Virus genome (UHGV): UHGV-1363177
Strand: one strand, 5' to 3'
DNA from: a virus
DNA: 58,819 nt
The notes under the pieces are model-generated. The model had not been told where the DNA came from. It saw only the letters and a program-made list of their open reading frames with translations, and searched no databases. Both the position numbers and the translations under genes were made by a program. Numbering within the stretch: the stretch's first letter is position 1; every line of letters starts with the position of its first letter. This document shows positions 9,630 to 29,600 of the stretch, one piece after another.

Positions 9630-10367
9630 GTGAGAGTTAAAGATATTATTGAAAGAGTTCTTCTTCTGTACCACGATGAGAATTACTTGCGAATCAAGCA
9701 GCAGCAATACTTGCAACTGTTAGATGATGCTATCCTTCAGCTCATCCTCACTCGTCCTGACGCTCACGAGAAGCGAGATGTAATGAAGCTTTCTCCGGGT
9801 CCGCGTCAGCGTCTCCCGGAGGAAGCTTTCTCTTTGATAGATATTTATTCTAACAAGTTTAAGATTGCTGAGACTGATGAGTACACAGATGGTAAACCTG
9901 TGTTTCAGGTAGCTCGTAAAGACTTGGACTACTTTAGCAACTGGTACGACAACATTGAAGAACACACTCAGATTGACGAGTTTGCTTTTGATGTTCGGTC
10001 TCCTAAGCAGTTTTGGGTTAATCCCCCAGTAGCTGAGTCTGTTCCTATTTATGTTGAGATAGGTTATTCTTACAAGCATCCTCAGTACAGTCTTATGGTG
10101 GAAGATTATGAAGACATTCTTGAAATGGAATTGGAAATCTCTGATGAATTTCGGAATGCTATCATCAACTATCTCCTGTATCTTCTGTACAGCACCGATA
10201 GCACTTCTCAGTTTGACCGTACCATTGCTGATAAGTACCTTAATAATTTCTATCAGTTGCTTGGGATTGACGGTAAGTCTACTCTTGAAACCTATCCTCA
10301 CATTATTGAAAAGACTACTCAAGGGTTGAACCTTCATGGAGCTAACGTTGCTCCCACGGGGGCGTAG
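9630..10367 (+). CDS. Hypothetical virion protein (245 aa, GTG start), possibly head-tail connector
   Basis: Position in the morphogenesis module; acidic. Confidence 0.5.
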   Translation: MRVKDIIERVLLLYHDENYLRIKQQQYLQLLDDAILQLILTRPDAHEKRDVMKLSPGPRQRLPEEAFSLIDIYSNKFKIAETDEYTDGKPVFQVARKDLDYFSNWYDNIEEHTQIDEFAFDVRSPKQFWVNPPVAESVPIYVEIGYSYKHPQYSLMVEDYEDILEMELEISDEFRNAIINYLLYLLYSTDSTSQFDRTIADKYLNNFYQLLGIDGKSTLETYPHIIEKTTQGLNLHGANVAPTGA

Positions 10368-10369
10368 CC

Positions 10370-11353
10370 ATGAGTTACATTAACGCGACAATTGGTAAAG
10401 CAGTCATCGGTGAAACTGCTTGGAACGGTGGAGAAAGCCTTATAGTACCCCGTAAGTACAGGCAGAATCTCTACTATCCAGTACGAAATAAAGATGCTGT
10501 AGATTTCTTCTGCATCAATCAGAAACCTATCTGCTTTGTTAAACCCATCACTACACTCGACGGGATTCGGTACTCTAGTCTGTCTGGTTATATGATTAAC
10601 AGAGAATTTGTAGATTTTGTACTTGGTTGGTACGACCGAGTGCGTTATGAGACTATGAGTAACTTTGAATCTCGAACTATAGGTGCAGATACAACTATGG
10701 TTACTTGGGATAAATTTCATGAATATGTGCTACCTAGCGTGCAGGGTTGTCCTGTGTCTATGGTGAACAGTGCTATTCGTAGTGCTTGTATCGAGTTCTG
10801 TGAAAAGACTTTGCTGTGGAAACAGGACAGTATTACGAATGACCTGATTGAAGATTACGATTTGTATATCTTCGCTCCCCCGCCGAATGCTAAGGTAGTT
10901 ATGCCTTACCGTGTTTCTATTGATGGTAAGGAAGTACAACCTACTGATTTGCAAACTTTGGAGTCCTTTGCTCCTAATTGGAAAGACCTTAAGGATGAAT
11001 TTCCGAAGTATTACTTTATGGTAAGTGATAACACTATACGTCTTGTTGGTACTCCTACTAAGACATATAAGGATGCTCTTACTGCTGATGTAGCTCTTAA
11101 ACCTTCTCGTGACGCTAAACAGTGTCCTACGTTTATTTTTAACGATTGGGCTGAGACAATTGCTGCTGGTGCTCTTGCTAGGTTGCACGCTATGAAGGAT
11201 AAGGTCTGGGCTCTTCCTGAACTTGTTGGCCATTACACTAAAGCCTTTCGAGAAGGTATCTCTAGGGCACGTAGCAAGTCTGCTAAGTCTTGGCTGCAAG
11301 AATCTAAAACAATGCTCCCTGTTGGATTTTATAACGAAAAGAGGTATTATTAG
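10370..11353 (+). CDS. Hypothetical virion protein (327 aa)
   Basis: ATGA-overlap coupling with neighbours in the structural module. Confidence 0.55.
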   Translation: MSYINATIGKAVIGETAWNGGESLIVPRKYRQNLYYPVRNKDAVDFFCINQKPICFVKPITTLDGIRYSSLSGYMINREFVDFVLGWYDRVRYETMSNFESRTIGADTTMVTWDKFHEYVLPSVQGCPVSMVNSAIRSACIEFCEKTLLWKQDSITNDLIEDYDLYIFAPPPNAKVVMPYRVSIDGKEVQPTDLQTLESFAPNWKDLKDEFPKYYFMVSDNTIRLVGTPTKTYKDALTADVALKPSRDAKQCPTFIFNDWAETIAAGALARLHAMKDKVWALPELVGHYTKAFREGISRARSKSAKSWLQESKTMLPVGFYNEKRYY

Positions 11354-11355
11354 TT

Positions 11356-11769
11356 ATGGCTGGCTTTAGTGATTATACCGAAAACAAAGTTCTTGATTTT
11401 ATTTTTAACGCTGGCTCCTTCACCATTCCCGGTTTGTATCTGGGTCTGTTCAAGAGTGATGCAGGTCTGGAGACTAATCAGATTGGCTCCACTGATGAAG
11501 TGAATGACAGTGCTTCTTCTTATGCCCGTATTAACATCAACACTCCCGGCGGTTTCAATGGTGCTTCCGCTGGTGCTGTGTCTAATGTTCAGGACATGGA
11601 GTTTCCCATCGCGCAGGCCGACTGGGGTACTATTACCCACACTGCTATTCTTGACGCTTCTTCTGGTGGTAATGTTCTGGCTTGGGGTCCGCTGCTGAAT
11701 CCTCGTACCATCTATAATGGTGACAGTGTGAAGGTTCCTGCTGGTGCTCTTGTTGCTACTCTGTCCTAA
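11356..11769 (+). CDS. Hypothetical virion protein (137 aa)
   Basis: Structural-module ORF, Gly/Ser-rich. Confidence 0.5.
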   Translation: MAGFSDYTENKVLDFIFNAGSFTIPGLYLGLFKSDAGLETNQIGSTDEVNDSASSYARININTPGGFNGASAGAVSNVQDMEFPIAQADWGTITHTAILDASSGGNVLAWGPLLNPRTIYNGDSVKVPAGALVATLS

Positions 11770-11787: not shown

Positions 11788-12411
11788 ATGGTGGGTACCA
11801 CTCTTTCTGATGCTACCTCTTTGCTCGGTGGGTCCACTCTTATGAGTGGTACCCCTACAGAGTTTAATCCTTCTCGAATCCAACCTCTTGCTGGTAAGGC
11901 CATCAATGAACTTCCAGTTGTCTATCTTGACCTATTTAAAAAGTTTGAAGTGGTAATTGCCTCGGAAGATTCTTATAAGTGTGACCTTGTAGTTACCTAT
12001 CAACCTGAGGTTAATTACGAATCTGAATCTAGTTTTAATCCGCATAGTATTTACAAAGTTGTTCGATTCCTCTGTGGCATTGCTTCTGAGTCTACTTATA
12101 ACTTTGATTTCGCAAAGATAATAGCTTATTTGAAGTTATATCTCGATAGTACTTCTAATTTTACTGACAGTAGTACTTATCGTCAGCGTACTTTGTGGGC
12201 TAATATGGACAGCATTAGCGACATTCCTGAATGGTTCTTGAATCTTCGAGAAATCATTGCTAGTGCTATCAACTGTGAAAGCAACATGCCTGAGGTTGAT
12301 TACTGGATTCAAAGAGAAGGTAAGTTTATCATTCGTCTTCTTTCTTTGCTCATCGACAATGAACGAAAGAACATTGGCAGAATTGTTATCGAAGAAGACC
12401 CTTACATCTAA
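11788..12411 (+). CDS. Hypothetical virion protein (207 aa)
   Basis: Structural-module ORF. Confidence 0.5.
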   Translation: MVGTTLSDATSLLGGSTLMSGTPTEFNPSRIQPLAGKAINELPVVYLDLFKKFEVVIASEDSYKCDLVVTYQPEVNYESESSFNPHSIYKVVRFLCGIASESTYNFDFAKIIAYLKLYLDSTSNFTDSSTYRQRTLWANMDSISDIPEWFLNLREIIASAINCESNMPEVDYWIQREGKFIIRLLSLLIDNERKNIGRIVIEEDPYI

Positions 12412-12435
12412 ATTTTAAAGTGAGTAACAACATCT

Positions 12436-14424
12436 ATGGCACAGATTAGATTTGCTAATAATGTGAGCACTCAGCTTACTAAGCCGGTAGCTGAGAACGA
12501 CTCTACTATTGAAGTTCGCTCTCTCACTCAAGGTCTTGTTTGGCCTAACATTTCTGCTACCGGTGATTACTTTCTTATTATCATTGACGACATTTCTTCT
12601 AGTACTTGGGAGATAATGAAGTGCACTAAGGTACAGGTCAACGGTGCTGCGACTGTTCTTACTGTTGAACGTGGGCTGGAGGGTACTACTGCTACTACCT
12701 TCAATGCTGGTTCGGTAGTTGAGAACAGACTTACCGCCGGTACTCTTGATACCTTTGGAGAAGGCTTTCCTGCCAAGGTTGAGATTAACCGTGGTGGCAC
12801 GGGAGCTACTACTGCTGCTGATGCTCGTACTAATCTTGATGTACCATCTAAGGCTGACCTTTCTTCCGAAGTAAGTACTCGTACTTCTGAAGTTGCTCGT
12901 CTTGACCAGAAGATTATTGACAACATTCCTCCGGCTGCTACTACTGCTGTTCGTGGTACCACTACGCTGAGCAGTGCCGTGGATAGTATTAGTGAAACTC
13001 TTGCTGCTACTCCTAAAGCAGTAAAGACCGCTTATGACAAAGCCGTTGCAGTTGATACTCGATTGACTTCCGAGGTTACTACCCTTGAAGCTGCGGACAC
13101 TGCCACTAATCAGAAGCTTACTTCTGAAGTCTCTAGGCTTGAAGGTGAAATTGCAGCCCATACTCCCCCGGATGCTTCGTTTACTACTAAGGGTATTGTG
13201 CAGCTTAACAGTGCTGTTAATAGTAACAGTGAAGTGCTTGCTGCTACTCCGAAGGCTGTAAAGACTGCTTACGATAAAGCAGTAGCTGCTGCTGCTAAGT
13301 CTGCTTCTGCTGATAAGCTTACTACTGCTCGAAGCATTACTCTTACAGGTCCTGTAACTGGTACTGTTGATTTCGACGGTAGTGCTGATGTTAGTATTCC
13401 TACCACTGTCGTAAGTGCCTCTACTTCTGCTGAGGGTATTGTTCAACTCAGTAGTGCTACGAACAGTACAAGTGAACTTGTAGCTGCTACATCTAAAGCA
13501 GTTAAAGCTGCTTATGATAAAGCTGTTGAAGCTTCTAATAAAGCTGGTCTGCCCCTTGGTCACATCTTTGCTTGGCCTTTCCCTACTGCTCCTGATGGTT
13601 GCATTATTCTAAACGGTAGTACCTACGACCGTACTCTTTATGCTGACTTCTTTGCTTACATTAAGTCTAAGGGTTGGACTAAGACTGAAGCTGAGTGGCA
13701 GAGTATTGCTAAGTCAAACAATGGCTTCTGTCCTTGGTATTCAGAGGGTGACGGAAGTACAACTTTTCGTACTCCTAAGTTTGCTCCATATCAAAAATTA
13801 GCTCTTGCCTCTGGTGATGCTGGTAAATATTATGAGGCTGGATTACCTGATGCCACATTTCCTATTCCTACTACTGCGGTTAATCATACAGTTACAGGTG
13901 GACCCACATACATATATACTGGTCAATATGTAGCGAACCAATCGTTATCTAAAATAAATTCAATCTATGGTAACTCCACAACAGTTCGACCAGAATCACA
14001 TGATTGGGTTGTATGTGTAGTAGCTTTTGGTACTGCTACTAATGTAGGTTCTGTAGACGTTGCTAATGTAATGTCTGCTGTTAGTCAGGTACAAGCTAAT
14101 CCTAATCTTCAGGGCACTGCACATATTGTAGAAACTTGGAAGTCTAACGATGGAACGTCTTGGTATCGTAAGTGGAGTGATGGTTTTATTGAGCAGGGGC
14201 AAAGTGACATTACCGTTACGGAATCGTCGATGACAATAACATTCAACAAACCTTTCACTTATTCAACGTATCAACTTATTACAGAGGCACATGATGTCAC
14301 GTCAAAATCTTTTGGTGAAGGTGTTTCCATCGAAACAAAAAACACAACTGGGTTTGTTTGCCACGGTCATAATTCCTGCACTATAGCATTTATTACTGCT
14401 GATTGGTACGCCTGTGGATATTAA
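12436..14424 (+). CDS. Tail fibre protein (662 aa) with lambda-Stf/T-even-type 'phage tail fibre repeats'
   Basis: Three copies of (G)IVQL(N/S)SA(V/T)NS(N/T)SE(V/L)LAATPKAVK(T/A)AYDKAV; shares an N-terminal roughly 100-aa domain (FANN.ST...VENRLTAG) with the ORFs at 16690, 17391 and 18800. Confidence 0.8.
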   Translation: MAQIRFANNVSTQLTKPVAENDSTIEVRSLTQGLVWPNISATGDYFLIIIDDISSSTWEIMKCTKVQVNGAATVLTVERGLEGTTATTFNAGSVVENRLTAGTLDTFGEGFPAKVEINRGGTGATTAADARTNLDVPSKADLSSEVSTRTSEVARLDQKIIDNIPPAATTAVRGTTTLSSAVDSISETLAATPKAVKTAYDKAVAVDTRLTSEVTTLEAADTATNQKLTSEVSRLEGEIAAHTPPDASFTTKGIVQLNSAVNSNSEVLAATPKAVKTAYDKAVAAAAKSASADKLTTARSITLTGPVTGTVDFDGSADVSIPTTVVSASTSAEGIVQLSSATNSTSELVAATSKAVKAAYDKAVEASNKAGLPLGHIFAWPFPTAPDGCIILNGSTYDRTLYADFFAYIKSKGWTKTEAEWQSIAKSNNGFCPWYSEGDGSTTFRTPKFAPYQKLALASGDAGKYYEAGLPDATFPIPTTAVNHTVTGGPTYIYTGQYVANQSLSKINSIYGNSTTVRPESHDWVVCVVAFGTATNVGSVDVANVMSAVSQVQANPNLQGTAHIVETWKSNDGTSWYRKWSDGFIEQGQSDITVTESSMTITFNKPFTYSTYQLITEAHDVTSKSFGEGVSIETKNTTGFVCHGHNSCTIAFITADWYACGY

Positions 14425-14436
14425 AGGAGAACTATT

Positions 14437-14970
14437 ATGGAATTTAACATAGGACAAACTTTTACAGGAACTTATCCACCAGAGGCAGCAGTCTGGTGCA
14501 ATACACATAATGCTTATATCAAAGAAATCCCTACAGGTTTTCAGATTATAGCTATTCCCGGACCTACGCCTGAAAAAGTTCGTACTAAAAAGCTCGAAGA
14601 ACTTTCTCAGAAGCATCACGAAGCAGAGGAAAGTGGTATTCTTCAGTCCTCTATTGGTTTTCCTATTGATGCTAATGAACGAGCTAACCGAGATGTCTCT
14701 GGTCTTATTTCACAGATGGAAATGACCAGTATTGATACGACTCAGTTTTGTGATGCTAATAATGATTTTCATGAAGTTACTCTTGACAATCTGAAGACTA
14801 TGAAGCTTGAACTTATTCAATACGCTCACTCTCTTTATGCTACGAAATGGCAGCTTCGTGCTGCTATAGAAGCAGCTAAGACTGTAGATGAGCTTAATGC
14901 TATTGACATTAAGTTCGTAACTGATTTCACACCCACACCAGTTGTTTTGGCTGAAAATGCGTCACATTAA
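14437..14970 (+). CDS. Hypothetical protein (177 aa), possible fibre chaperone by position
   Basis: Directly downstream of the 662-aa fibre; strong SD AAGGAG. Confidence 0.35.
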   Translation: MEFNIGQTFTGTYPPEAAVWCNTHNAYIKEIPTGFQIIAIPGPTPEKVRTKKLEELSQKHHEAEESGILQSSIGFPIDANERANRDVSGLISQMEMTSIDTTQFCDANNDFHEVTLDNLKTMKLELIQYAHSLYATKWQLRAAIEAAKTVDELNAIDIKFVTDFTPTPVVLAENASH

Positions 14971-15190
14971 ACAAATACTTATAGCTATTGACCAGCTACT
15001 AAATACTCTTCTTTTTGACTGGGCGGATGAGACTTTATCTTCTAGGTGCTGGCGATGGAACTTAAAGGGAATAGACTGGCCACGAAAGCTTGTTGATACT
15101 TTACTCTTCTTTGATAAAGACCATTGTAAAACCAGCTATGAATCTGAAGTTCTTCGTAGACAATGTCCTGTTGAACTTCGTAATTTATAA
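14942..15190 (+). CDS. Hypothetical small protein (82 aa)
   Basis: ORF overlapping the end of the previous gene. Confidence 0.3.
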   Translation: MFWLKMRHIKQILIAIDQLLNTLLFDWADETLSSRCWRWNLKGIDWPRKLVDTLLFFDKDHCKTSYESEVLRRQCPVELRNL

Positions 15191-15384
15191 ATATAGCTAT
15201 CCAAGTCTCTTGACAAATCTATTATCGTACCCATCTATATGTTGGGGTAGTGTAGCCACTACTCTAGTACTTATATAAGTATCTTCTTAAAGTTTGGTAC
15301 GCTATATAAGTATAGCTCTGAACCTCAAAAAGTCCAGAGCTATGCCTATGTGCTTCAACTTGTATTAACAAGAAGGAGTAACCA

Positions 15385-16281
15385 ATGGGTTACGATATGG
15401 AAAAGACCACTCACGAGGAGACCACGACTAACGTGACTTCTTCTGGTGAAGGTGGTTATCATATTAAACCGACGAAGCTGGTGATTCACACTGAAGCTTC
15501 GGACGATGATAATAAGGATTCGAATATGAATGACATTGCTGGTCTGCTTGCTCTGATGCAGGGTAATAAGAATATGGACCTGCCCGGTCTGATGGCTCTG
15601 TGCCGCGAGCGTGGTTATGACCGTACCTTCGGTGGCGAAGGTATGTTCATGTTTGTGTTCTTGCTGCTGTTCCTGTTCGCTGGTGGTGGCTGGAATAATC
15701 TCGGCGCTCGCAATCAGGCCGCCTTCGCCGAAATGGCTGGCAACAACTGTCAGAGCATTATCGGTCTGCACGACCGTATCACTGCCGCGCAGACTGCTTC
15801 TACCAACGGTTTCTTTACTCTCGACACGAAGCTGTGCAGCTCTATCGCTGAGGTCATGGCTGCTGTCCGCAATCAGGGCGACCGTAACTATGAAGCTACC
15901 CGGAATGTGAATGACACCGTGCGGGATTGCTGCTGCACGATGGGTCGTAATCTGGATGCCATTGCCTGTAAGATTGATGGTGTTGCTGCCGAAGTTCGTC
16001 TGATGCAGGAACGTACCACTAACAATCTCCAGTCTATGGAGTGCCGTCTGTCCGGTCAGATTCGTGAAAACGCTAACGCTATGGCTCTGGGCTTTGAACG
16101 TCAGTCTAATCTGATTAACGAAAAGTTCACTGAGCTTGAGCTGGAGCGTCTGCGTCGTGAAAACTGCGAACTGAAGAGCACCATTCAGGGTAACGCTATT
16201 GCCGATGCCGCTGTGGCTCGTCTCCAGACTTTCGCTATCAATCATTACACGCCGACTAAGACTGCTACTCCTGCTGCGTAG
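15385..16281 (+). CDS. Hypothetical protein (298 aa) with a central transmembrane segment
   Basis: MFMFVFLLLFLFAGGGW hydrophobic stretch; very high-GC, host-like codon usage; own upstream region with a hairpin and TATATAAGTAT repeats; intrinsic terminator downstream. Confidence 0.6.
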   Translation: MGYDMEKTTHEETTTNVTSSGEGGYHIKPTKLVIHTEASDDDNKDSNMNDIAGLLALMQGNKNMDLPGLMALCRERGYDRTFGGEGMFMFVFLLLFLFAGGGWNNLGARNQAAFAEMAGNNCQSIIGLHDRITAAQTASTNGFFTLDTKLCSSIAEVMAAVRNQGDRNYEATRNVNDTVRDCCCTMGRNLDAIACKIDGVAAEVRLMQERTTNNLQSMECRLSGQIRENANAMALGFERQSNLINEKFTELELERLRRENCELKSTIQGNAIADAAVARLQTFAINHYTPTKTATPAA

Positions 16282-16298
16282 TATCAGTTGACTGATTA

Positions 16299-16334
16299 GG
16301 AGCCTAAGTCTTGGATGCTTAGGCTCCTTTTCTG
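16299..16334 (+). terminator. Rho-independent terminator (GGAGCCTAAG...CTTAGGCTCC plus TTTTCTG)
   Basis: 10-bp perfect stem followed by a T-tract, immediately 3' of CDS 15385..16281. Confidence 0.75.
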
Positions 16335-16358
16335 TATATATACACTGTGAGAAGTAAT

Positions 16359-16652
16359 ATGAATAAGTTTGTTATTGACACTGAAGCTGGTACCGTTCTT
16401 CCTGTGCACATGGAAGAAAAGAAAGAATGTCCTGTTATGGAAGCTTGGCATCGTCTGGGTGATGAGATTGGCGGTTGGAAAGAGTACCGTCAGCTTGAAA
16501 CCAAGGGCGAGAAATATGCTACTGCTTCTAAGCAGGAGTTCATGCACGCTCTGATGGCGCTGGACGATTTGCTGCACGAAATGTACAAAGCTGCAAATAC
16601 TGAAGAGCGGGATGAAATGCTTAAGCTTAAGAACGCTCTGTTCACTATGTAG
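16359..16652 (+). CDS. Hypothetical small protein (97 aa)
   Basis: ORF after the terminator, ATG at 16359. Confidence 0.45.
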   Translation: MNKFVIDTEAGTVLPVHMEEKKECPVMEAWHRLGDEIGGWKEYRQLETKGEKYATASKQEFMHALMALDDLLHEMYKAANTEERDEMLKLKNALFTM

Positions 16653-16689
16653 TATTATAGCTACTAAACTTTAAGAAGGTACTTTATTT

Positions 16690-17385
16690 ATGGCTAGAGT
16701 TCTTTATGAGAACAACTGCGTGTCTACTCTCTCGAAGGCTATTACGTCTTCAGATGAAAGTATGACTATCTCTGACATTAATGGCAATTGGCCAGAGATT
16801 ACCGCAGCTTCTCCGAATTTCTTTTTTGTTACACTTATTAATCCCAACAATAATGAACAAGAAATTGTGAAAGTTACCCGTTGTAATCCTGCTACGGGTT
16901 TGATGCACATTACTCGTGCACAAGATGGTACTACTGCGAAAAACTTTCCTATTTCTACTAAGGTTGAAATGCGGATTACAAAAGGTTTTTTTGATGCCTA
17001 TTTAGGTGCTGCTGCCTTTGTTCCGTTCTTCGCTTTCCGTCTTGAACATCCTGCTGGTCTTCCTGCTGGATGGATTCATTGTGATGGTAGTGCTCACGAA
17101 AAGACTTCTAAGGCTGGCGAAGCCTTGATGTCCTTGCCTACCTATACTAAGAATCAGTGGAAGATTGTTGAAACTGAGTCTACTATCACTGCTCCTAACT
17201 TTTATGATACTTCTACTGGTAAACCTTACTTTGTAATTCCGGGTAGAGAGTCTGGTGTTAAAGCTTCGGAAGAAATCAAAGTTACTGTAAAAGTTCCCAA
17301 AACGGGTGACACTACAAATGAAGAACTGGTAGTGTATACTCTTAACACTGTGCAGATGACCCCTGCTTTGTTCGTAGGAGTTTAA
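16690..17385 (+). CDS. Tail fibre paralogue (231 aa)
   Basis: N-terminal domain homologous to ORFs 12436, 17391 and 18800 (shared ENNxSTL... and EIVKVTR... blocks). Confidence 0.6.
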   Translation: MARVLYENNCVSTLSKAITSSDESMTISDINGNWPEITAASPNFFFVTLINPNNNEQEIVKVTRCNPATGLMHITRAQDGTTAKNFPISTKVEMRITKGFFDAYLGAAAFVPFFAFRLEHPAGLPAGWIHCDGSAHEKTSKAGEALMSLPTYTKNQWKIVETESTITAPNFYDTSTGKPYFVIPGRESGVKASEEIKVTVKVPKTGDTTNEELVVYTLNTVQMTPALFVGV

Positions 17386-17390
17386 TAGTT

Positions 17391-18290
17391 ATGCTTAGTA
17401 GAATTGAATTTGCAAATAATGCTAGTACTCGTATCGCGAAAGATATTCAAACCTCTGAGAATACTATCACGGTAGCCTCCGGTGAGACTTCTTACTTTCC
17501 AGAGCTTCCGTACAGTGATTCATATTTCATGCTTACTCTTGTTGATGACAATGGTAACTTTGAAATTGTGAAGTGTACTGCAAAGTCTGATACTACTTTC
17601 ACTGTTGAGCGAGCGCAGGAAGGTACTACTGCTAAGTTTTTTAAGCAGGGGACTACAATTGAAAATCGACTGACTGCTGGCAGTATTACTCAGGTATTCC
17701 AACAGTCTGTTGGGACTGACACAGAACACGGTATCTTCCGAATTGCTTCTACTGATGAAATTCGGAATGGTGCTACTCAGCCTATCGCTCCTGCTGCTTG
17801 TACTCCAGAAAATCTTAAACCAGTCCTTAATGAGATTCAGGTTAATGCCTTTATTAAAGGTGGCATCGTAGCCTTCTCTGGTGAATTTGATGGTGTCAAT
17901 CCTATTCCTACTGGTGGCACTGTTGGAGACAAGAACTGGCGTATTTGCGACGGAGGTGATGGTACTCCTGACCTACGTAACCGATTTATTATGGGATGTG
18001 ATACTCCTATCAGTATTGGTATTACTGGGGGTAGCAACACTAGAGAAATTACTACAGGACCTTGCACACTAACTGTTGCTCAGCTTCCGAGCCACAACCA
18101 TTGGAACTCTGGTAATACATCTCCTTTTTCAGCTCCTGCTAATAGTGGTATGTCTGGTAGTTATGGTAACTGGCATGGCCAAGGGACAAGTTTCACAGGT
18201 AATAGTCAGGCGCACACCCACACAATATCGGCGTCAGATGACAACCGTCCTGCATATTATGCATTGGCGTACATTATTAAGATTAAGTAG
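17391..18290 (+). CDS. Tail fibre paralogue (299 aa) with a His-rich C-terminal domain (HNHW...HTHT) ending YYALAYIIKIK
   Basis: Shared N-terminal domain; C-terminal HxH motifs as in metal-binding fibre tips or collar domains; C-terminus almost identical to that of ORF 18800. Confidence 0.65.
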   Translation: MLSRIEFANNASTRIAKDIQTSENTITVASGETSYFPELPYSDSYFMLTLVDDNGNFEIVKCTAKSDTTFTVERAQEGTTAKFFKQGTTIENRLTAGSITQVFQQSVGTDTEHGIFRIASTDEIRNGATQPIAPAACTPENLKPVLNEIQVNAFIKGGIVAFSGEFDGVNPIPTGGTVGDKNWRICDGGDGTPDLRNRFIMGCDTPISIGITGGSNTREITTGPCTLTVAQLPSHNHWNSGNTSPFSAPANSGMSGSYGNWHGQGTSFTGNSQAHTHTISASDDNRPAYYALAYIIKIK

Positions 18291-18299
18291 GTACTAATT

Positions 18300-18788
18300 A
18301 TGACGGATACCTTAGTATTTATTCCTGAGGATAAACTTATCATTTATAATAATGAAGTATTTATTTCAGATAAATTTATCCCACTATCTTCTCCAGAAGG
18401 CACCATTCGAGCTATTCATTGGACTCCTACAGATAAGCACATAGAGTTCGAATTTACCTACCGTGAGCTTACTGATGCAGACATTCCTGTATATGTAATG
18501 CCCTATGTATTGTTAGCTACGGAAGAAAAGACACGCCTTATTAAAGAAGCTGCTGATGCCGCCAATAATCCTGAGCTGTGTGCTGAAAATATTCGTAGAG
18601 AGCGAGACCATCGAATTGCTAAAACAGATTATCTGATGATGGCTGACTATCCTATCACCGACAGTAGTAAACAGGAACTTGAGACCTATCGTCAAGCTCT
18701 TCGAGACATCACGAAAGACCCTTCCTTTCCGTGGGCTGGTACTCCTGTCGAAAATATTCCTTGGCCCAAGAATCCTCTTGCTGAATAA
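18300..18788 (+). CDS. Tail fibre assembly protein (Tfa-type chaperone)
   Basis: C-terminal signature YRQALRDITKDPSFPW...IPWPKNP matches the conserved tail-fibre-assembly motif (W/YR..L..V...P.FP...IxWPxxP). Confidence 0.7.
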   Translation: MTDTLVFIPEDKLIIYNNEVFISDKFIPLSSPEGTIRAIHWTPTDKHIEFEFTYRELTDADIPVYVMPYVLLATEEKTRLIKEAADAANNPELCAENIRRERDHRIAKTDYLMMADYPITDSSKQELETYRQALRDITKDPSFPWAGTPVENIPWPKNPLAE

Positions 18789-18799
18789 GGTACATTGAT

Positions 18800-19672
18800 A
18801 TGGAAATTAAATTTGCTAACAATGCAAGTACGGTTCTTGCTAACGCCATCGAAAAAGACACTACTACACTTGTCGTAGCTACAGATGCTGGTCAGCTTTT
18901 TCCTGTTCTCAGTCTTCCTACTGATTATTTTAAGATTACTGTCGTTAATCCCGGCGATGGTACTTGGGAAATTATGAAGGTTACCAAGGTAGCTGGTGAT
19001 GAGTTCACTGTTGCTCGTGCTCAGGAGGGTACTAAAGCTCTTGCTTTTCCACAGAATGCTGTAGTTGAAAATCGTTTGACTGCTGAAAGTATTCAGGCAA
19101 TTCTCAATGACGTTAATGCTTCCCCTACTAAAGCTGGCCGTATTCGTGTAGCTACGGAAGCTGAGGTTGAAGATGGTGTTGTTACTGATGCTTGTCTTAC
19201 ACCTGCTAACTGTGATTATCTTAAAGTTTTCCCCGGTGTAATCACCGCTTTCTCTGGTGTGTTCAACAGTGGTGGTTTCCCTATTGATAGTAATACGGGT
19301 AAAGCTAGAACAGACTGGCATAAATGTGATGGTACCAACAACACTCCGAATCTTCAGGATAGATTCATTGTTTGTGCAGGGAGTAAATATCCTGTAGCTA
19401 CTAGCGGTGGCATAGACCATCTTGATATTGAAGTTGAAGTTCTCAATCATCAGCTTACTATTGATGAAATGCCGAAACATCATCACAGAGTGCCTGACCA
19501 AACCGGTAAGAATACAGAAGGTACTTGGATAAATGGTTGGAGTTGGGGTGCAGGAATTGATACTGAAGACACCGGTGGGGATAAGCCTCACAATCATGAC
19601 ACTAAAGTAACTATTCCTGACGATACACTTCCTCCATATTACGCACTTGCATATATTATGAAGATTAAATAA
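18800..19672 (+). CDS. Tail fibre paralogue (290 aa) with a His-rich C-terminus (HHHR...HNHD) ending YYALAYIMKIK
   Basis: Shared N-terminal domain with 12436, 16690 and 17391; shares its C-terminal module with 17391. Confidence 0.65.
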   Translation: MEIKFANNASTVLANAIEKDTTTLVVATDAGQLFPVLSLPTDYFKITVVNPGDGTWEIMKVTKVAGDEFTVARAQEGTKALAFPQNAVVENRLTAESIQAILNDVNASPTKAGRIRVATEAEVEDGVVTDACLTPANCDYLKVFPGVITAFSGVFNSGGFPIDSNTGKARTDWHKCDGTNNTPNLQDRFIVCAGSKYPVATSGGIDHLDIEVEVLNHQLTIDEMPKHHHRVPDQTGKNTEGTWINGWSWGAGIDTEDTGGDKPHNHDTKVTIPDDTLPPYYALAYIMKIK

Positions 19673-19681
19673 AGGTCTCCT

Positions 19682-21520
19682 ATGAAATATTCTTTGTCAA
19701 ACTATCTAGGAATGTTTCCTCGCTTTCAGCCTTATCTGATTGATAACATGGCTGCTCAACTTATTGTTGATGGAAACATCATCAGTGGTGGCTTGGAAGC
19801 ATTTCGACAGGATACTATCGAACATGAAATAGATAAACTGTATGCAGACATGTACAGGTACCTGCGTACTGATGGCACTAAACAATGGCTTGTGTTTGAC
19901 AAAGATGTTGACCTAGCTCGCAGTGCTGTTATTGACGATGCTACTAATCAGGTGTACATCACAGGTCTTGGTGAGCTTCGTACTTTCGACAGTAATCTTC
20001 TTAATAAAACTGACACTACAATTACGACGAGTAACTCGTATAAGGCAGGTATCTCGAAGCCAGATGCTCCCACTCTTGAACAGGTAGAAGGTGCCGGTGC
20101 TGCTCAAGAAACAAGAGCTTATCTTATAGCTTATGCTAGACATTGGTCTTCTGGTAAGATAGACCTTGGCCCTTGCTCTGATGCTGCTAAGACTATAGGT
20201 GGCGTTACCTATGTTGAAGTAGACGAAACCCATGTAGCTAAGCTTTCGAACATTAAGCCTAATGCAGCTACTGATGAGCACGCTGACTGGGTTTACATTT
20301 ACCGAGCTAGTACGACTTCCTCTGGTGAGGGCCAGTGGAGATATGTCACCAGCTTCAACAGCAAGGGTGGTGCTATGCCTCCCGGTGTAGAGTATAACTC
20401 TGGTAATAGCACTTATTCCTTTAAAGATGAGTTCAAAGAAGAAGACCTCGGAGAAGTTCCTCAGAATATTAACTGGACTTGTCCTGATAATCTCGAAGGT
20501 CTTATCTCTGTAGGCAACGGTGTCTTTGCAGCATTTAAAGGTAACACAGTTTATCTCTCCTATCCGTACCAAGGACATGCCTTCCCTTCCGAATACGCTA
20601 TCCCGCTTGACTACAACGTAGTTGGTCTTGGTAGTTTCGGTAATACACTTGTCATTTGTACACAGAGTAATACGTACCTTGTAGTTGTTAATGACCCTAG
20701 TGCTTCTATTCTTCGTCCTATTCAGGAAGCACATGCTTGTGTCAGTAAAGACAGCATTGTCAGTATGGCTGATAGTGTTATCTACGCTACGAAGTATGGT
20801 CTCATTCGAGTAACACAAGATGGTGCTACTCGAATGACGTATCCGATTATCTCTGACAGAGCTTGGGCTGACTACAATCCTGAGACTATTAAAGCTGCTT
20901 CTTATCAAGGTAAATACCTGATGTTCTTTGATAGCGATATTGTTGAATACAATGGAGCAGTAATTGACTTTCAGGAAATTAAGACTGGAGTTCTCGGACT
21001 TTCTCAGAAAGCTTCTTGTGTTTGGCAGGATGATTCCTCTTCGCAGGTATTCATTCAGTATATCAGTCCTGTATTGATGCAGCCTCGCATCTTTGCTTTT
21101 GGTGAAAGTAACTCTGTTAAACGAGTGTACAAGTGGCGCAGTAAAAAGTTCATCAACACAGAAGGTCTGTTCACCCTTGCCGCTGGTAAAGTGAACTTCT
21201 ATGATGATAGCTTCCAGTTGAAGCTCTATGACTTTAATTACGACAAAGCTTCAAATGCTTTCAACACTCCGCAGGTAAATGTCTTTTCTATCAATGGGGA
21301 CGCTAGTACAAATAGCTACTGGCTTTCTAACTTAGGTAAGCATTGGTGTAAGCTAGACTTCTATGTTGATGACCGCATTCGTAAGACTGTGTACGTGTAC
21401 AACAACTTCCCCTTCCGTCTGCCTGCTGGCTTCCGTGGTGACTCTTTTTACGTAGACATCACTAGTACCATTCCCATTTCTCGCGTGCAGTTAGCTTCTA
21501 GCATCGGGGAACTTGAATAA
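19682..21520 (+). CDS. Large tail/baseplate structural protein (612 aa)
   Basis: Size and position after the fibres and before the internal virion proteins. Confidence 0.5.
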   Translation: MKYSLSNYLGMFPRFQPYLIDNMAAQLIVDGNIISGGLEAFRQDTIEHEIDKLYADMYRYLRTDGTKQWLVFDKDVDLARSAVIDDATNQVYITGLGELRTFDSNLLNKTDTTITTSNSYKAGISKPDAPTLEQVEGAGAAQETRAYLIAYARHWSSGKIDLGPCSDAAKTIGGVTYVEVDETHVAKLSNIKPNAATDEHADWVYIYRASTTSSGEGQWRYVTSFNSKGGAMPPGVEYNSGNSTYSFKDEFKEEDLGEVPQNINWTCPDNLEGLISVGNGVFAAFKGNTVYLSYPYQGHAFPSEYAIPLDYNVVGLGSFGNTLVICTQSNTYLVVVNDPSASILRPIQEAHACVSKDSIVSMADSVIYATKYGLIRVTQDGATRMTYPIISDRAWADYNPETIKAASYQGKYLMFFDSDIVEYNGAVIDFQEIKTGVLGLSQKASCVWQDDSSSQVFIQYISPVLMQPRIFAFGESNSVKRVYKWRSKKFINTEGLFTLAAGKVNFYDDSFQLKLYDFNYDKASNAFNTPQVNVFSINGDASTNSYWLSNLGKHWCKLDFYVDDRIRKTVYVYNNFPFRLPAGFRGDSFYVDITSTIPISRVQLASSIGELE

Positions 21521-23638: not shown

Positions 23639-26600
23639 ATGGCTGGTTCCTTTACTGAATATTTGACTAATAGCTATGACCCCACTTCAGCGATGATAGG
23701 GACTTGGCTTGAACAGCAGGCTGTTAACCGTGCTATTGCTCGTGCTGAGATGGAAAAACTTTATCAGCAGAGACTTGCTGTCCAAGCTGCTCAGGCTAAA
23801 TCTAATCCGTATCTTGACTATCTTAGAGCACAGGCTGCTGCTGGTGTTACTCCCGGTACAGGCATGGCTCCTGTATATGGAGATGCCCCCACTCCTGCTG
23901 AAGCTCCCGGAGTTTGGGACCAATTCTTGAATCGTGCTGTTCCCCAGTCTCTTGCTGGTCTTGCTGGTGGTGTCGGTCTACTCGGTGACCTTATTGGTGC
24001 TGATTCTGTTCGAGACTGGGGTCTTGAAACCTCTCAATATTTCAACAACATCGCTGCACAAACTCCTCGAACTGTTGCTAGTCTCGAAGATGTTCTTTCT
24101 GGTAAAGGTGACTTCTCTACTTGGTTGAAAGAGAGTGCTATCGACCTTGCTCCTGACCTGATAGGTACCATTGCTACTGGTGGTACTGGTGGTCTTGCTG
24201 CCCGTGGCGGTGCTGCTCTTGCTGCTAGGGTTGCTGGAAAGGAACTGGCCGAGGGTGCTGCCAAGAAGGCTCTTCAGCGTGGTGCTCTTGCTGGTGCCTA
24301 CGGCTACGGAGTTGGAGCTGAAGGTGGTCAGGCTTACCTTACTGACGTAGAACGTCACGGTGTCGAAGGTACATCTCCTTGGATGGACCTCACCACAGGT
24401 GCTGTTGCTAGTGCTTTTGACCTTGCTGGTCCTGCCGGTGGTCTTGTTCTTAAAGCTCTTGGCCGTCCTGTCTCTAAGGCTGCTAGTGAAAAACTTCTCA
24501 GGACCCTTGCTTCTGAGAAGACTAGGACTGCTTTCCTTAAAGGTCTGGGTAAAGGTGCTCTTGCTGAGGGTGGTACTGAGTCCCTTCAGGAACTTACCCA
24601 TATTATCAATGAACAGCTCCAAAGTCCTGAGCTTGAATTTACTCCTCAGGATATCATGCGTCTGGTTGAATCTGGTCTTCTTGGTAGTATCTTTGGTGCT
24701 CCTATTGGTGCTGTCTCTAGGGTCCGCGCTAAGCAGCAGGCTCCTGCTCAGCTCAAGGCTCTTCTTGCCAATCAGTCTACTAGAGACACTTCTGATATAT
24801 CTGCTTCTCGATATGCTGAAGAACGCAAGGCTGCTCAGGACTATCTTGCTAATCTTCCTTCTAATCCTGCTCCTTTCGATAGCACTGTAGATTCTTTCTA
24901 CAATCGAACTCCTTCTGTGTCTAGTCCTATTGGGGAATACTATGCACAGAACTTTGATAAGCTCGATAACTTCTACAGTGACTTCGAGCAGAAGATGAAG
25001 ACTCCTTCTGAAGCTACTGCTGAAGCTGCTACGAGGCTGCGTACTTCTATGCGAAATGCTGCTGCACAGACTCAGCGACAGCTTAGTGAAGAAAGCACTA
25101 GACTGAATGCTGAAGCACAGACTCTTACAAATCAGCTTGCTAAACTGTCTAGCAAGCCTCCTCGTAACGTTACTCCTGAACAGCAGCGGGCATTGATTGC
25201 TGACCTTAACAAGCAGCTCGTTGCTAACAGGGCTGCTCAGGTCAGACTTCAGGAAGGTGCTAAAGAACGTGTTAGTTCTATTCAGCAGACTCTTGCTAAG
25301 GAAGAAAAGAAACTGGCTAACAAGCTGATGAATGACACTATCATCACGGACCAGTCTGGTCTGGCTCGTGATCCCTTCGGTGCCTCTCAGCTTATCCAGA
25401 TTCGTGGTGGAGCTAAAGCTCTGTTTGATAAGCAAGCTGCTGCTGTGCGAGAACGTCTCAATAAAGTTTCTGCTCAGCTTAGCCTTGCCGAACGTAGAAG
25501 TAAAAGCTCTCAAGCTACCCGCAGCATGGCACTTGCTAAGTTACTCGATGACCAGATTGCTGCTGGCAAGAAGGAACGTAATGAGCTTATCAAGCGTCTT
25601 CAGAAGATGAATGGTGCACTGGCTCGTATCGAAGCGGGTACTAACAATCTTGCTACTACTCAGTACACCGTTGACCAAGCTTACGTAGACTTGCAGGACA
25701 TCTACGACGGTGGTGTCATTGACACACCTACTCGTTCTGAAAAAGTTCTGTACGACACTCTGCGTAAAAGTCTTGATAATGTTGAAAAGAAAAGACGTGC
25801 TGAAGAACTGAAAGCTCGTACTGCTGCTCGTAGAGCTAAACGTCCTGATACTGTTACTGACTTTGACAAGACTCCAGATACCTTCTACAACAGAGAAGCT
25901 TCTGTAATTCCCAGTGCTACTCCTTTCGAAACTTCTGTTGATAGCTTCCTTTCTGGTACACCCTCTGTACAAGCTAATAACGTTCTTCAGTTAGCGCTTA
26001 CTGAAGGTCAAGCTAATCTTCCTGCTGTGTCTGAAGCTATCCCGATGGGTACTACGGACACCGGTGTTGATACCATTGCTCTTAACGCAGAGGGTGAGAC
26101 TATCCCTGTAGGTCCCGGTCGTGAACAGCTCATGCTTCCTGAAGGTGGTCAGGACTTTGACAGAACTCCTGACAGCTTCTACGGAACCACTCCCGAAGTC
26201 AAAGGCTTTGTTGAAAGTAATCCTGAAATTAAGAGTCCTATGATTTCTAGGTTCCCCGAAGCTGTGGATGCTTTCTACAACTACACGCCTGACATTGTGG
26301 AAGGTACGTGGCTGATGACTGATGCCACTACTAGACCTACGAAAGCTAAGTCTCCTAAGGAATCTGCTAAGCTTACTCCTAAAGACAAGAGCAATCTTGA
26401 TGTTACTAGAGCAATAGCTGATGAGGACTATAAGCAGGCTGTTGAAGATGTCCGACACGCTGCTATTAGACTTGAATCTACTAGCAAGAATGTTGATAAA
26501 AAGTCTTGGACTAAGAAACTTAATGACGGTCTTGTTAAAGCAAAGCAGGCTCTCAATAAGCTCCTTAATCTGAACATTGAACAGCTTCGTACTAATGCTG

Positions 26601-29600
26601 ACACCTCTAGTAAAAAGCTAGTTACTCAGGGTATTACACCGTCCCTTGAGATGCTTCCTCTGCTTTCTCACAACGTCACTATTGTTGACAGTGTGGATGT
26701 TCCCGAAGCTGCTGGCAGAACTGGTTACATTACTCGTGACCAGAAGATTTATCTTGTTGCAGATAACATTGTTGCTGAAGCTAAACAGCGTAAAAAGTCT
26801 GTCAAAGAAATAGCTACTCGTACTCTTGTGCATGAAGGTCTTGCTCACTATGGTCTTCGTGCCATTATGAGCCCTGCGGAACTCGGTAACTTCCTGCACG
26901 ATTTCAGGAGGAAGTTCGAGAATACTCCTACTTGGAAACGAGCTGCTGCTTCTATTCCTGAGTTTGACCAGCTCAATAAAAGACAGCAGGCTGAAGAAGT
27001 CTTTGCTAAACTTTCCGAACGTCACAAGATTAACAATCTTCTTGAGTCCCGCAATCTGGCAAAGGGTTATCTGAACAGTTTCATTAAGAAACTTGACAGC
27101 AAACTGGGACTGACTGACCTTACCCTTGATGATGTTAAGTCACTTCTTACTGTAGCTGCTGACAGACTGTCTATGGAATCTGCTGGTCAGGGTGCTGCTG
27201 ACATTGGAGCACATTATAGAACCATTCCTCAGACTGGTCTTGCTCGTTCTCTTGACCCCAACCTTGAATCTATGACCCGTGTTGAACGTGCTGAGGCTGA
27301 GGCGGCTCAGCGATTCCCTTTTTCTAACAGAGTTCAAGAGGTAGTAGCTAATAGAGAAAACACTGTCGAATACCTTCGAGAAGGTTTGATTGATAGCTTC
27401 CGTCCTGTTGAACGAATGATTCAAGCTGTTAAGGACTTGGGAAAGAAAGCTGATAACAAAGCTCGTGTCACTTGGGACACTAACGTCTACAAGCTTAGCC
27501 AGCATCTTTCCAGTCAGCAAGCTCTTGCACTTCAACAGTACAAGACCAACTTTGTTGACCCGCTTGTTGACCTTATCAGTGACACAGCCCTTCCGGGTGA
27601 AGACTACAGAGTAACCTTTGCTCGTGTATCTGACTATGTTGAAGCTGTTGCTGCCTATGAGCGTAACGACTTCGGAGCTAAGAAGGGTCTTGACTTCCCC
27701 CTCGTTCCGGGTAAGAAGGGTACATCTCTTCAGGAAAGTCAGGACTACTTCCGCAGTGTCATCAACAAGTACAGCTCTGAGTCCATGAACAAGGTAATGG
27801 ACCAACTCCAGAAGATTAACAATGAGCGTCTTCGTCTACTCGAAGAAAAGAAGATTATCCCGAAGGAAGTCATTGATAACTGGAGAGCTACGTACAAGTA
27901 CTACATGCCCTTCAAGAGTTGGGAGAATGTGGTACAGGAACTTGACCCCGCTTGGTACAACAGCAACACTCGTCGGTCTTTGTCTACTCCTAACGTTCAG
28001 AAGAAGATAATGAAGCGAGCTACTGGTCGTGAAGGTGAAGCTCAGAATCCTATTCTGCACTCCATCCTTCAGCTCTATGATGTGAGTAACCTTTCTCGTA
28101 CTGTTGACATTGGTCGTTCTCTTCTGAGACTTGTTCGTAACAATCCTGACGCTACTAGTATCTTCGAAATGGTAGAGTACAGAGATAAGAATGACAAAGA
28201 CTGGGGTAAACCTAGACTCACTACTGACCCTGAAACTGGTGAGCAAGTCTACGTTGTTGACCACGGTGCTATGAAACGTGTAGTCAACAAACAGACTGGT
28301 GACATCTCTCTTGTGCCTACTAAGCACACTGCCGAAGGTGAAATGAAAAACACTGTGGCAGTTATTGATGAGGATGGTACTGTACAGAGGGTGTTACTAC
28401 ATGACAGTGGTGTGGCTAGAGCTCTTAGAGCTGAGAACATTACTAGAGCTTCTGGTGTTGTTCGAGCTATTGGTGCTATCCAACACGAGCTTGGAAAGTA
28501 CATGACTTCTCGAAATCCTTTGTTCTGGATTACCAACCCCATTCGAGATACCGTGTCTGCTGCTATTAACATCAGCGCACTGAGTCAGGAACTTGAAGCC
28601 CTTGGCATTCCTAACTCCAAGGAAATCTCTCAGTCCATTCTGGTCAACGGTCTTGGTAAGACACTTACTAAGAACAGTGTTCGTAATGCTCTTATGTACT
28701 TCCGTAAGTACGGCACCTTCAATGATGTAACCATTAAGAATAAGGATGGTTCTACTAAGACTATCAAGTCTGGTCTCAGTGATGAGATGAAGATGTTCAT
28801 GAGTGACTACGAACAGTACTTGAACTACGGCGGACAGACTGAATACTTTGGAACGAACACTTATGAAACGTTAAGGAAAGACATCTTGTCTGCACTGAAG
28901 GACAAGAATCCCAAAACGTTTCTTGAAAAGCAACGTAGTAACATCAATAAAATGATGGAGTACATGGATGAGGTGAGTAACTCTCTCGAAAACATGACTC
29001 GTTACATTGCTTTCAAAGAAATCGTAGACCGCCTTAAGCCTTACGCTGAAGCCGGTAGGACTGCTGACGGTAGACCTTTCAGCTACGAAGAAATGTACAG
29101 TCGAGCTGCTAACATTGCCCTCAACCTTACTGTGAACTTCTCTCGAAAAGGTAGCTGGGCTCCTATTTTCAACTCTCTGTACATGTTCGCTAGTGCTAGC
29201 ATTGGTGGTAACGTTCGTATGCTGGAGACTATCTTCCGTAAGGACAGAAAAACTGGCAAGACTGACTGGAATCACGTAGCTAGATTCGCTATGTATCCCA
29301 TGCTGGGTTACGCTCTGCAAGCTATCATTGCTCGTGCTCTCATGGGTGACGATGATGATGGTGTCAGCTTCTATGATAAGATTCCTGAATACATCAAAGC
29401 TAGTAACATCATCCTTCCTAATCCTTTTAGTAAGGGTGACTATATCACTATCCCGATTACTTATGGTTTCGACATGTTCTGGAACCTTGCTATGAACATC
29501 TTCGAAGCTGGTCACAGTGCTGCTTACGGCAACCCCGGCCCCAACGCTACGGAAGCTGCTTCCTCTATCATTGGTAAGATGTTCAACAACTTCGCAACCA

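Follow-up and report, generated by a model that had tools for sequence, protein, structure and literature searches.

Four tail-fibre paralogues with a shared, very likely tail-anchoring domain in an uncultured distant relative of GP4/Bcep22-type podophages

The virus genome UHGV-1363177 (58,819 nucleotides; hereafter the window, which denotes the whole stretch analysed) is a metagenome contig (NCBI GCA_900522925.1) with a GC content of ~43% that carries four tail-fibre genes, F1 to F4, between positions 12436 and 19672. Our analysis suggests, with a probability of about 0.75, that this cluster is the host-recognition module of a GP4/Bcep22-type tail in which four homotrimeric fibres would be docked in parallel through a common anchor. 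F1-F4 would each form homotrimers that start with the same β-barrel domain of ~100 residues, this domain would dock the fibre directly on the tail body, presumably in the adaptor II/nozzle region, and the parts beyond it would bind host receptors. F1 would be a long fibre with Stf-type repeats whose distal half is swapped as a cassette along with the DUF4376 gene downstream of it, F3 and F4 would be short fibres with fast-evolving, histidine-rich tips that are probably served by a PF16778 chaperone, and F2 would be a stubby, slowly evolving member. The fibres would attach side by side, not as branches of one another, and all four may be present on one virion. The four fibres and the chaperone were recovered as open reading frames (ORFs) at exactly the positions given in an initial annotation of this DNA.

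The first ~100 residues of F1-F4 align with 15 invariant columns, and pairwise BLASTP comparisons of residues 1 to ~105 gave E-values of 1e-12 to 3e-18 at 28-44% identity. When a hidden Markov model (HMM) of this N-terminal domain (N-domain) was run against all six-frame ORFs of at least 40 residues in the window, exactly F1-F4 matched, each with E ≤1e-36, which is far beyond chance and bears out the common domain that had originally been described. Two details of that description required correction. The motif VENRLTAG at the C-terminal end of the domain reads VEMRITKG in F2, and the divergence said to follow the domain in every paralogue does not extend to F3 and F4, which are full-length paralogues with 34% identity over 309 columns (BLASTP, E 2e-48). 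No Pfam family matched residues 1-105 of any paralogue and an NCBIfam scan of nine proteins was also empty, while the domain heads several PHROG tail-fibre families. T7 gp17 and P2 gpH, which had been put forward as comparators, were absent from the Pfam matches and from the top 50 Foldseek PDB matches for F3 and F2.

A structural counterpart was found in Ralstonia phage GP4. Residues 3-101 of F3 matched residues 2-99 of GP4 gp76 (PDB 8JOV chain 1, 'Putative tail fiber protein', 439 residues, 18 chains) with E 4e-14, and residues 1-116 of F1 matched gp76 residues 1-109 with E 1.6e-8. The fold comparison used predicted AlphaFold2 models of F3 and F2, the former with a mean predicted local distance difference test (pLDDT) score of 80 that exceeds 90 in the N-domain. 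For both models the top Foldseek match was 8jov_1, 'Portal-tail complex of phage GP4' (probability 1.00, target-normalised template modelling score 0.75), and the F2 N-domain superposed on it with a root mean square deviation of 2.2 Å over 107 columns. Just 116 of the 439 residues of gp76 are modelled in 8JOV; because the part homologous to the N-domain is what is ordered on the GP4 tail, the shared domain is very likely a tail-anchoring domain, and homology to gp76 and the same predicted fold thus lend support to the anchoring role proposed earlier. The same entry contains 18 fibre chains, 12 chains of gp81 (adaptor II) and six nozzle chains, and the window encodes homologues of both gp81 and the nozzle. 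GP4 fibre III reportedly consists of six trimers joined to the nozzle, which the 18:12:6 chain counts fit.

Comparison with related contigs points to an old and maintained array. The close relatives L005-L007 are three IMG/VR contigs, the last of them incomplete, with core proteins 92-97% identical to those of the window, and L008 is a distant ENA contig whose nozzle is 58% identical. Four N-domain genes are present in the window, L005, L006 and L008 and at least three in the incomplete L007; the order of F1-F4 is unchanged in L005, in L006 and, at 42-60% identity, in the distant L008, and so is that of F2-F4 in L007. Orthologous N-domains are 81-95% identical, compared with 24-45% for paralogous N-domains within a genome, and the duplications are old, with the N-domains evolving without concerted evolution. 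The ratio of nonsynonymous to synonymous substitution rates (dN/dS) is 0.02-0.3 throughout F1-F4, N-domains included, which indicates purifying selection and function for every one of them. Constraint on the N-domains of F3 and F4 (0.02-0.05) equals that on the nozzle (0.035-0.056). For cultured phages, comparative evidence that four such paralogues are old and selectively maintained has been lacking.

F1 (12436-14424, + strand, 662 residues) is the long fibre. Its N-terminal anchor (12436-12750) is followed by three Phage_fiber_2 repeats (13003-13047, 13240-13284 and 13483-13527), a Collar domain (~13558-13662) and a weakly Gp53-like C-terminus. The repeats, AAT(P/S)KAVK(T/A)AYDKAV at residues 190-204, 269-283 and 350-364, had been likened to those of lambda Stf, and they match Pfam PF03406 in three stretches (E 9.8e-44, 147.1 bits vs a cutoff of 22), F1 being the sole paralogue to do so. 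The N-domain and proximal shaft are 81-90% identical to those of close relatives; the distal part is unrelated after ~residue 220 in L005 and ~residue 380 in L006, and the F1 of L006 ends in an F3-like HxH tip. Kinship of the distal 300 residues of F1 with the F3/F4 tip family was considered and rejected (hhalign probability 0.2%), so a common 'collar' theme for the distal parts of all four fibres was dropped.

F1 is followed by a gene for a 177-residue DUF4376 protein (14437-14970, + strand; PF14301, E 5.8e-15; PHROG tail families 1348, 2837 and 1807), which varies together with the F1 distal cassette among the relatives. From its position and family, this protein is probably a Tfa-like accessory or chaperone for F1, and the cluster has a second accessory gene beside the one that had been singled out as dedicated to the fibres. 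Homologues of the DUF4376 protein form the N-terminus of an 803-residue protein in L005 (6561-8972) and a 1094-residue protein in L007 (20-3304). The C-terminal ~600 residues of both resemble phrog_10818 (unknown function), the N-terminus of the L007 protein resembles phrog_105 'tail fiber assembly', and these fusions may represent a chaperone joined to a large distal module. A different layout is seen at 3991-7975 of L008, where the first fibre (616 residues) ends in an HxH tip like that of F3 and precedes a 227-residue PF27318 protein, and where a DUF4376 gene comes after a separate 215-residue Phage_fiber_2 protein that lacks the anchor; the same modules have thus been reshuffled further.

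The short fibres F3 (17391-18290, + strand, 299 residues) and F4 (18800-19672, + strand, 290 residues) share, as had been noticed from the outset, an HxH-containing tip module that ends in YYALAYI(I/M)KIK, their C-terminal ends being PAYYALAYIIKIK and PPYYALAYIMKIK, respectively. In F3, the anchor (17391-17705) leads through a linker to a tail-collar-type tip with HxH motifs at 18093-18101 and 18213-18221 (H235-H237 and H275-H277); F4 has its anchor at 18800-19114 and its HxH motifs at 19478-19486 and 19589-19597 (H227-H229 and H264-H266). Across 55 homologues, conservation at the four tip histidines is 90% or higher. HxH motifs form metal sites in T4 gp12 and gp37, and the histidine-rich tips of F3 and F4 probably bind metal. 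Both tips resemble PDB 6OV6 ('C24 protein' of Bizionia argentinensis; E 4.4e-5, also found by Foldseek) in a match that takes in the PHSHTF/AHTHTI and YYTLAYII/YYALAYII motifs, as well as phrog_1800 'tail collar fiber protein', and their relatives are named 'microcystin-dependent protein'; neither F3 nor F4 reached the score for Pfam Collar (PF07484).

A 162-residue tail assembly chaperone (18300-18788, + strand) is encoded between F3 and F4, as initially reported. It is not the canonical Tfa protein that it was taken for: residues 95-159 match PF16778 Phage_tail_APC (72.7 bits vs a cutoff of 26.6), PF02413 Caudo_TAP gave no match and a Pfam scan at E ≤0.1 returned PF16778 alone. The ORF also matches phrog_4912 'tail fiber assembly' (E 2.6e-19) and PDB 2KZ6 (E 3e-4). 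By the usual gene-order convention the chaperone would serve F3; given the shared tip fold, F4 may be a second client. Identity to close relatives is 89-96% in the F3/F4 N-domains vs 62-71% in the tips (89-95% vs 62-67% for F3 alone), and the chaperone, at 60-62%, has diverged as much as the tips. The dN of tips and chaperone is ~10 times that of the N-domains and their dS is mostly higher too (0.9 to saturated, compared with ~0.6 in the nozzle), a pattern suggestive of the import of diverged alleles.

F2 (16690-17385, + strand, 231 residues) combines the anchor (16690-17004) with a conserved 125-residue C-terminal domain and is uniformly conserved, with 82-88% identity to close relatives in the N-domain and 89-92% in the C-domain. 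It aligns to the F3 family up to a GW..CDG motif and no further, and the C-domain family comprises just 14 clusters. Since the AlphaFold2 model has pLDDT values of 25-70 across much of residues 100-231, no fold is given for the C-domain. The dS of the F2 N-domain is saturated in comparisons with L005 and L007 and that of the C-domain is 0.5-0.8, which hints at a recombination boundary inside F2.

By sequence comparison, F1, F3 and F4 thus evolve in the manner of receptor-binding proteins (RBPs), and F2 in that of a conserved component. With the F1 distal half swapped and the F3/F4 tips evolving fast, the distal parts resemble host-range determinants, and this fits the general gradient from a conserved N-terminus to a replaced C-terminus (PMC10386132). 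Three modes of fibre evolution consequently stand side by side, namely cassette exchange in F1, rapid change of the probably imported F3/F4 tips, and conservation of F2, which makes the lineage a useful natural data set on anchor/tip recombination and on breakpoints for engineering chimeric fibres.

Outside this lineage the N-domain occurs in 86 cultured-phage records, among them myophages, a Lambdavirus and jumbo phages, and a profile of the four window copies matched 16,039 representative clusters (E ≤1e-3). In the best 150 of these 16,039 clusters it is nearly always placed at residue 1 of proteins that range from 114 to 1171 residues, and it is a widespread modular anchor. BcepIL02, CSP3 and DC1 each have four genes with the domain, JC1, Bcep22 and BcepMigl three, GP4 two, and L009 and L010 one. 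The Burkholderia/Ralstonia N-domains cluster together (43-66% identity), apart from those of the window (23-43%), and either the arrays expanded independently or they co-evolve with the tail of each clade. A separate group of metagenomic proteins (P0137, P0141, P0163 and P0230) includes some with three tandem N-domains in 336-371 residues; three anchors on one chain could imitate a trimeric fibre base. One metagenomic protein of 4059 residues has 12 partial matches to the domain.

The surrounding genes indicate what kind of tail the fibres belong to. The structural module runs in the order terminase, SU10-type portal, capsid, adaptor I, adaptor II, Gp80, a 207-residue orphan, fibre cluster, nozzle and a 2223-residue LPD38 polyvalent protein. 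Adaptor I (9630-10367, + strand) matched PF24175 SU10_adaptor (E 3.2e-14), GP4 gp82 (phmmer, E 1.1e-18) and BcepIL02 gp53. The adaptor II homologue (10370-11353, + strand), a candidate for the ring on which the fibres dock, matched GP4 gp81 (phmmer, E 5.5e-20), BcepIL02 gp54 and, over residues 119-307, PDB 8jov_G (12 chains; E 2.7e-16). It has 327 residues vs 206-209 in GP4 and BcepIL02, and the ~105 extra N-terminal residues gave no family match. L008 has the extension as well (adaptor II of 340 residues), and in L009 it is shorter (263 residues). The idea that its length tracks the number of fibre paralogues was rejected, as BcepIL02 has four paralogues with an adaptor II of 209 residues and L009 has one with 263. 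Next in line are a homologue of Gp80, the bead protein of GP4 'fibre I' (11356-11769, + strand; PF23140 'Podophage GP4 fiber I protein gp80', E 1.8e-34; PDB 8jou_a, 10 chains, E 3.3e-11), which represents a further fibre type outside the 12436-19672 span, and the 207-residue orphan (11788-12411), which shares 81% identity with its counterparts in L005 and L006 and shows weak similarity to a 403-residue L008 protein in the C-terminal half of the latter. Directly downstream of F4, the nozzle (19682-21520, + strand) matched GP4 gp74 (phmmer, E 3.8e-39), BcepIL02 gp63 (E 2.9e-41) and PDB 8jov_A (six chains; E 1.9e-35). The LPD38 protein (23639-30310) lies where Bcep22, GP4 and phi24B (gp47) encode their DarB-like giant proteins, and it is likely to be a polyvalent protein that is packaged or ejected.

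The Gp77 collar (PF23148) of GP4 was not detected: an HMM built from three sequences gave a best E-value of 0.31 over the window ORFs, in an unrelated region, and the same HMM did find Gp77 in GP4, BcepIL02, CSP3 and L010. Comparing Gp77 by hhalign with the 207-residue orphan and with the adaptor II family yielded probabilities below 1%. Homologues of gp78 and gp79, including the rope protein, were likewise undetectable in the window; a PDB search with GP4 gp78 and gp79 gave no match.

Because phmmer ties adaptor I, adaptor II, Gp80, the fibres and the nozzle to GP4 and to Burkholderia phage BcepIL02, and because the tail module has the same gene order in BcepIL02, CSP3 and GP4, the window phage appears to be a distant relative of the Bcep22/GP4-type podophages. 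Judged from its genes it is short-tailed, as had been proposed: the portal, the two adaptors and the nozzle are of the GP4/Bcep22 type, and tube and tape-measure genes are missing from the window. A megablast search with positions 12000-20000 against 50,697 phage records gave no match and hence no close cultured relative at the DNA level, and Bcep22-like phages were absent from the best 25 of 41 capsid tblastn records, a result that does not place the phage within Lessievirus or Gervaisevirus. Searching 185,579 reference genomes with the nozzle revealed no prophage. Many metagenomic contigs of 58-62 kb have close homologues, with 768 homologues counted for F3, and the several-fibre layout of GP4/Bcep22-type podophages thereby reaches into a distant, abundant and uncultured lineage.

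Between F1 and F2 lie four ORFs on which the initial annotation was silent. In addition to the DUF4376 gene, these are a small ORF (~14942-15190) that overlaps the end of that gene, matches phrog_3342 (E 9.5e-24) and is kept in L006 and L007, a gene for a 298-residue membrane protein (15385-16281) with one predicted transmembrane segment at ~residues 86-104, and a further ORF at ~16347-16652. The small ORF is not called as a gene in the source assembly annotation. The membrane protein is 93% identical in L006, 59% in L008 and 38% in L009, and the L005 stretch lacks it. Immediately after its gene comes a strong hairpin with a 12-bp stem that resembles a terminator (16298-16328). Promoter-like sites were not above expectation (19 vs 20.5 in shuffled sequences).

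How four anchored fibres would be accommodated on one tail can be read in several ways. The four species might share six docking positions, so that a virion would carry a stochastic mixture, or different virions different fibres, as a hedge between hosts; this is a serious alternative, although its chances fall somewhat short of even. It would agree with the GP4 tail, which shows one N-domain species in 18 chains (six trimers) where the genome encodes two, with mass spectrometry of JC1 virions, in which one of the three tail-fibre proteins was detected (PMC9144972 Table 6), and with the 15 invariant N-domain positions, which fit a common binding surface. However, the distance between paralogous anchors relative to orthologous ones would suit specialised, non-equivalent sites no less well, and two dodecameric adaptor rings plus the nozzle offer more than six potential sites (PMC10386132). 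Each paralogue might accordingly own a docking site, on the nozzle, adaptor II, adaptor I or the adaptor II extension, and all four types would then be displayed in fixed stoichiometry. A gene order fixed out to L008, strong purifying selection on each anchor and the extra N-terminal region of adaptor II could be read in this way, as could the presence of three fibre types together on GP4 virions. The other two GP4 fibre types, however, use Gp80, the rope protein and Gp77 and not the N-domain, and the adaptor II extension does not follow paralogue number in BcepIL02 and L009, and we consider such a fixed display rather unlikely. A tentative extension of these ideas envisages either four non-interchangeable docking specificities, in four tiers on a tail that lacks Gp77 or has it replaced, or six-site competition that yields a combinatorially heterogeneous burst; either would, if true, be a multi-receptor display mechanism with no structural demonstration in podophages so far.

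The branched apparatus that had been proposed for this phage, with one primary fibre on the tail and the others hanging from it, now seems improbable. Klebsiella podophages with multiple RBPs, KP32 and K11, do branch, and the 600-residue extensions fused to DUF4376 in the relatives could decorate the F1 tip if DUF4376 stays bound, as some Tfa-type chaperones are said to do from work on phage Mu Tfa. Nevertheless, all four window fibres have a complete tail anchor and no distinct docking peptide, the homologous GP4 domain belongs to the portal-tail complex itself, and no T4 gp10-like domain was found in an N-terminal or shaft position (a Gp10_C match scored 19.3 vs 27 bits and fell in the C-terminal tip of F4). 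Branching is disfavoured because of the full anchor in every paralogue, the lack of a branching domain and the lack of an anchor in known secondary RBPs, which leaves parallel docking or competition for sites. Least credible of all is a single functional fibre with the others as decaying duplicates. The detection of just one fibre protein in JC1 would suit it, but all four genes are intact with dN/dS values of 0.02-0.3 and their order is kept in L005, L006 and L008, and in L007 for F2-F4; maintained paralogues argue against some being redundant relics.

We therefore favour four homotrimeric fibres docked in parallel through the common anchor, and several points weigh against it. The phage is uncultured and known from its genes alone. 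The GP4 PDB entries hold gp76 alone of the two N-domain paralogues and, because gp75 was not deposited, six sites for one species are all that is documented; the JC1 mass spectrometry result counts here as well. Contact of the N-domain with the nozzle or adaptor II is proposed from the composition of 8JOV and from citing papers. Because the Gp77 collar is undetectable, the GP4 fibre architecture is not simply transferable. Finally, F2 is no more than a candidate receptor binder, its C-domain being poorly modelled and unassigned.

Among documented tails, that of GP4 (Gervaisevirus; PDB 8JOV and 8JOU) is like the one proposed here in its N-domain, by sequence and predicted fold, in adaptor I, adaptor II, Gp80 and the nozzle, and in having the fibre genes immediately upstream of the nozzle gene. 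GP4 gp75 even resembles F3 and F4 over their full length (phmmer, E 4.5e-26 and 6.1e-23). In contrast to the window, GP4 has two N-domain paralogues instead of four, with 27-40% N-domain identity to those of the window, and it has the Gp77 collar, gp78 and gp79, none of which is detectable here. Papers that cite the GP4 structure describe three fibre types, of which fibres I and II sit on a 15-mer immunoglobulin-like Gp77 collar and fibre I consists of Gp80 dimers on a rope protein.

The Lessieviruses (Bcep22, BcepIL02, DC1, CSP3 and JC1) share with the window three to four adjacent fibre genes with a common N-terminal core, a small ORF within the cluster, and a nozzle and giant polyvalent protein thereafter. 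They have no DNA similarity to the window, their GC content is ~65% in JC1 and CSP3 vs ~43%, and the Gp57/Gp77 collar present in them was undetected in the window; BcepIL02 has no counterpart of the long Stf-repeat F1, and neither GP4 nor BcepIL02 has a PF16778 gene beside its F3/F4-like fibres. Multiple tail-fibre genes with 'a core homology' were described as a unique Lessievirus feature in the CSP3 paper, which also discusses host range and heterogeneous virions (PMC10269572).

In the E. coli Stx phage phi24B, whose podophage tail is of a related T=9, dual-adaptor kind, six trimeric lateral fibres of gp61 attach by their N-domains (the shaft begins at ~residue 100) at the adaptor/nozzle junction, two of the three N-domains of each trimer being bound to the 12-mer adaptor (bioRxiv 10.64898/2026.04.10.717836). 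Unlike the window, phi24B has a single lateral fibre species and a needle, and the fold and oligomerisation of its fibres are completely different from those of GP4 (bioRxiv 10.64898/2026.04.10.717836). More than one RBP also widens host range in podophages of Klebsiella (KP32, K11 and KP34). There, RBP1 alone is anchored and RBP2 sits on a branching domain by way of a short conserved peptide (PMC13352976), whereas all four window fibres have the full anchor; in documented branched systems the secondary RBPs do without the anchor of the primary one and use another element for docking (PMC13352976, PMC13579863). Multiple fibres with one docking domain are already known from Lessieviruses and GP4 and do not constitute a new kind of system. 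What is new in the window lineage is a tail with no detectable Gp77 and a PF16778 chaperone, a second accessory gene, the age of the four genes and the selection on them, the exchange of the F1 distal half, and the fast F3/F4 tips beside a conserved F2.

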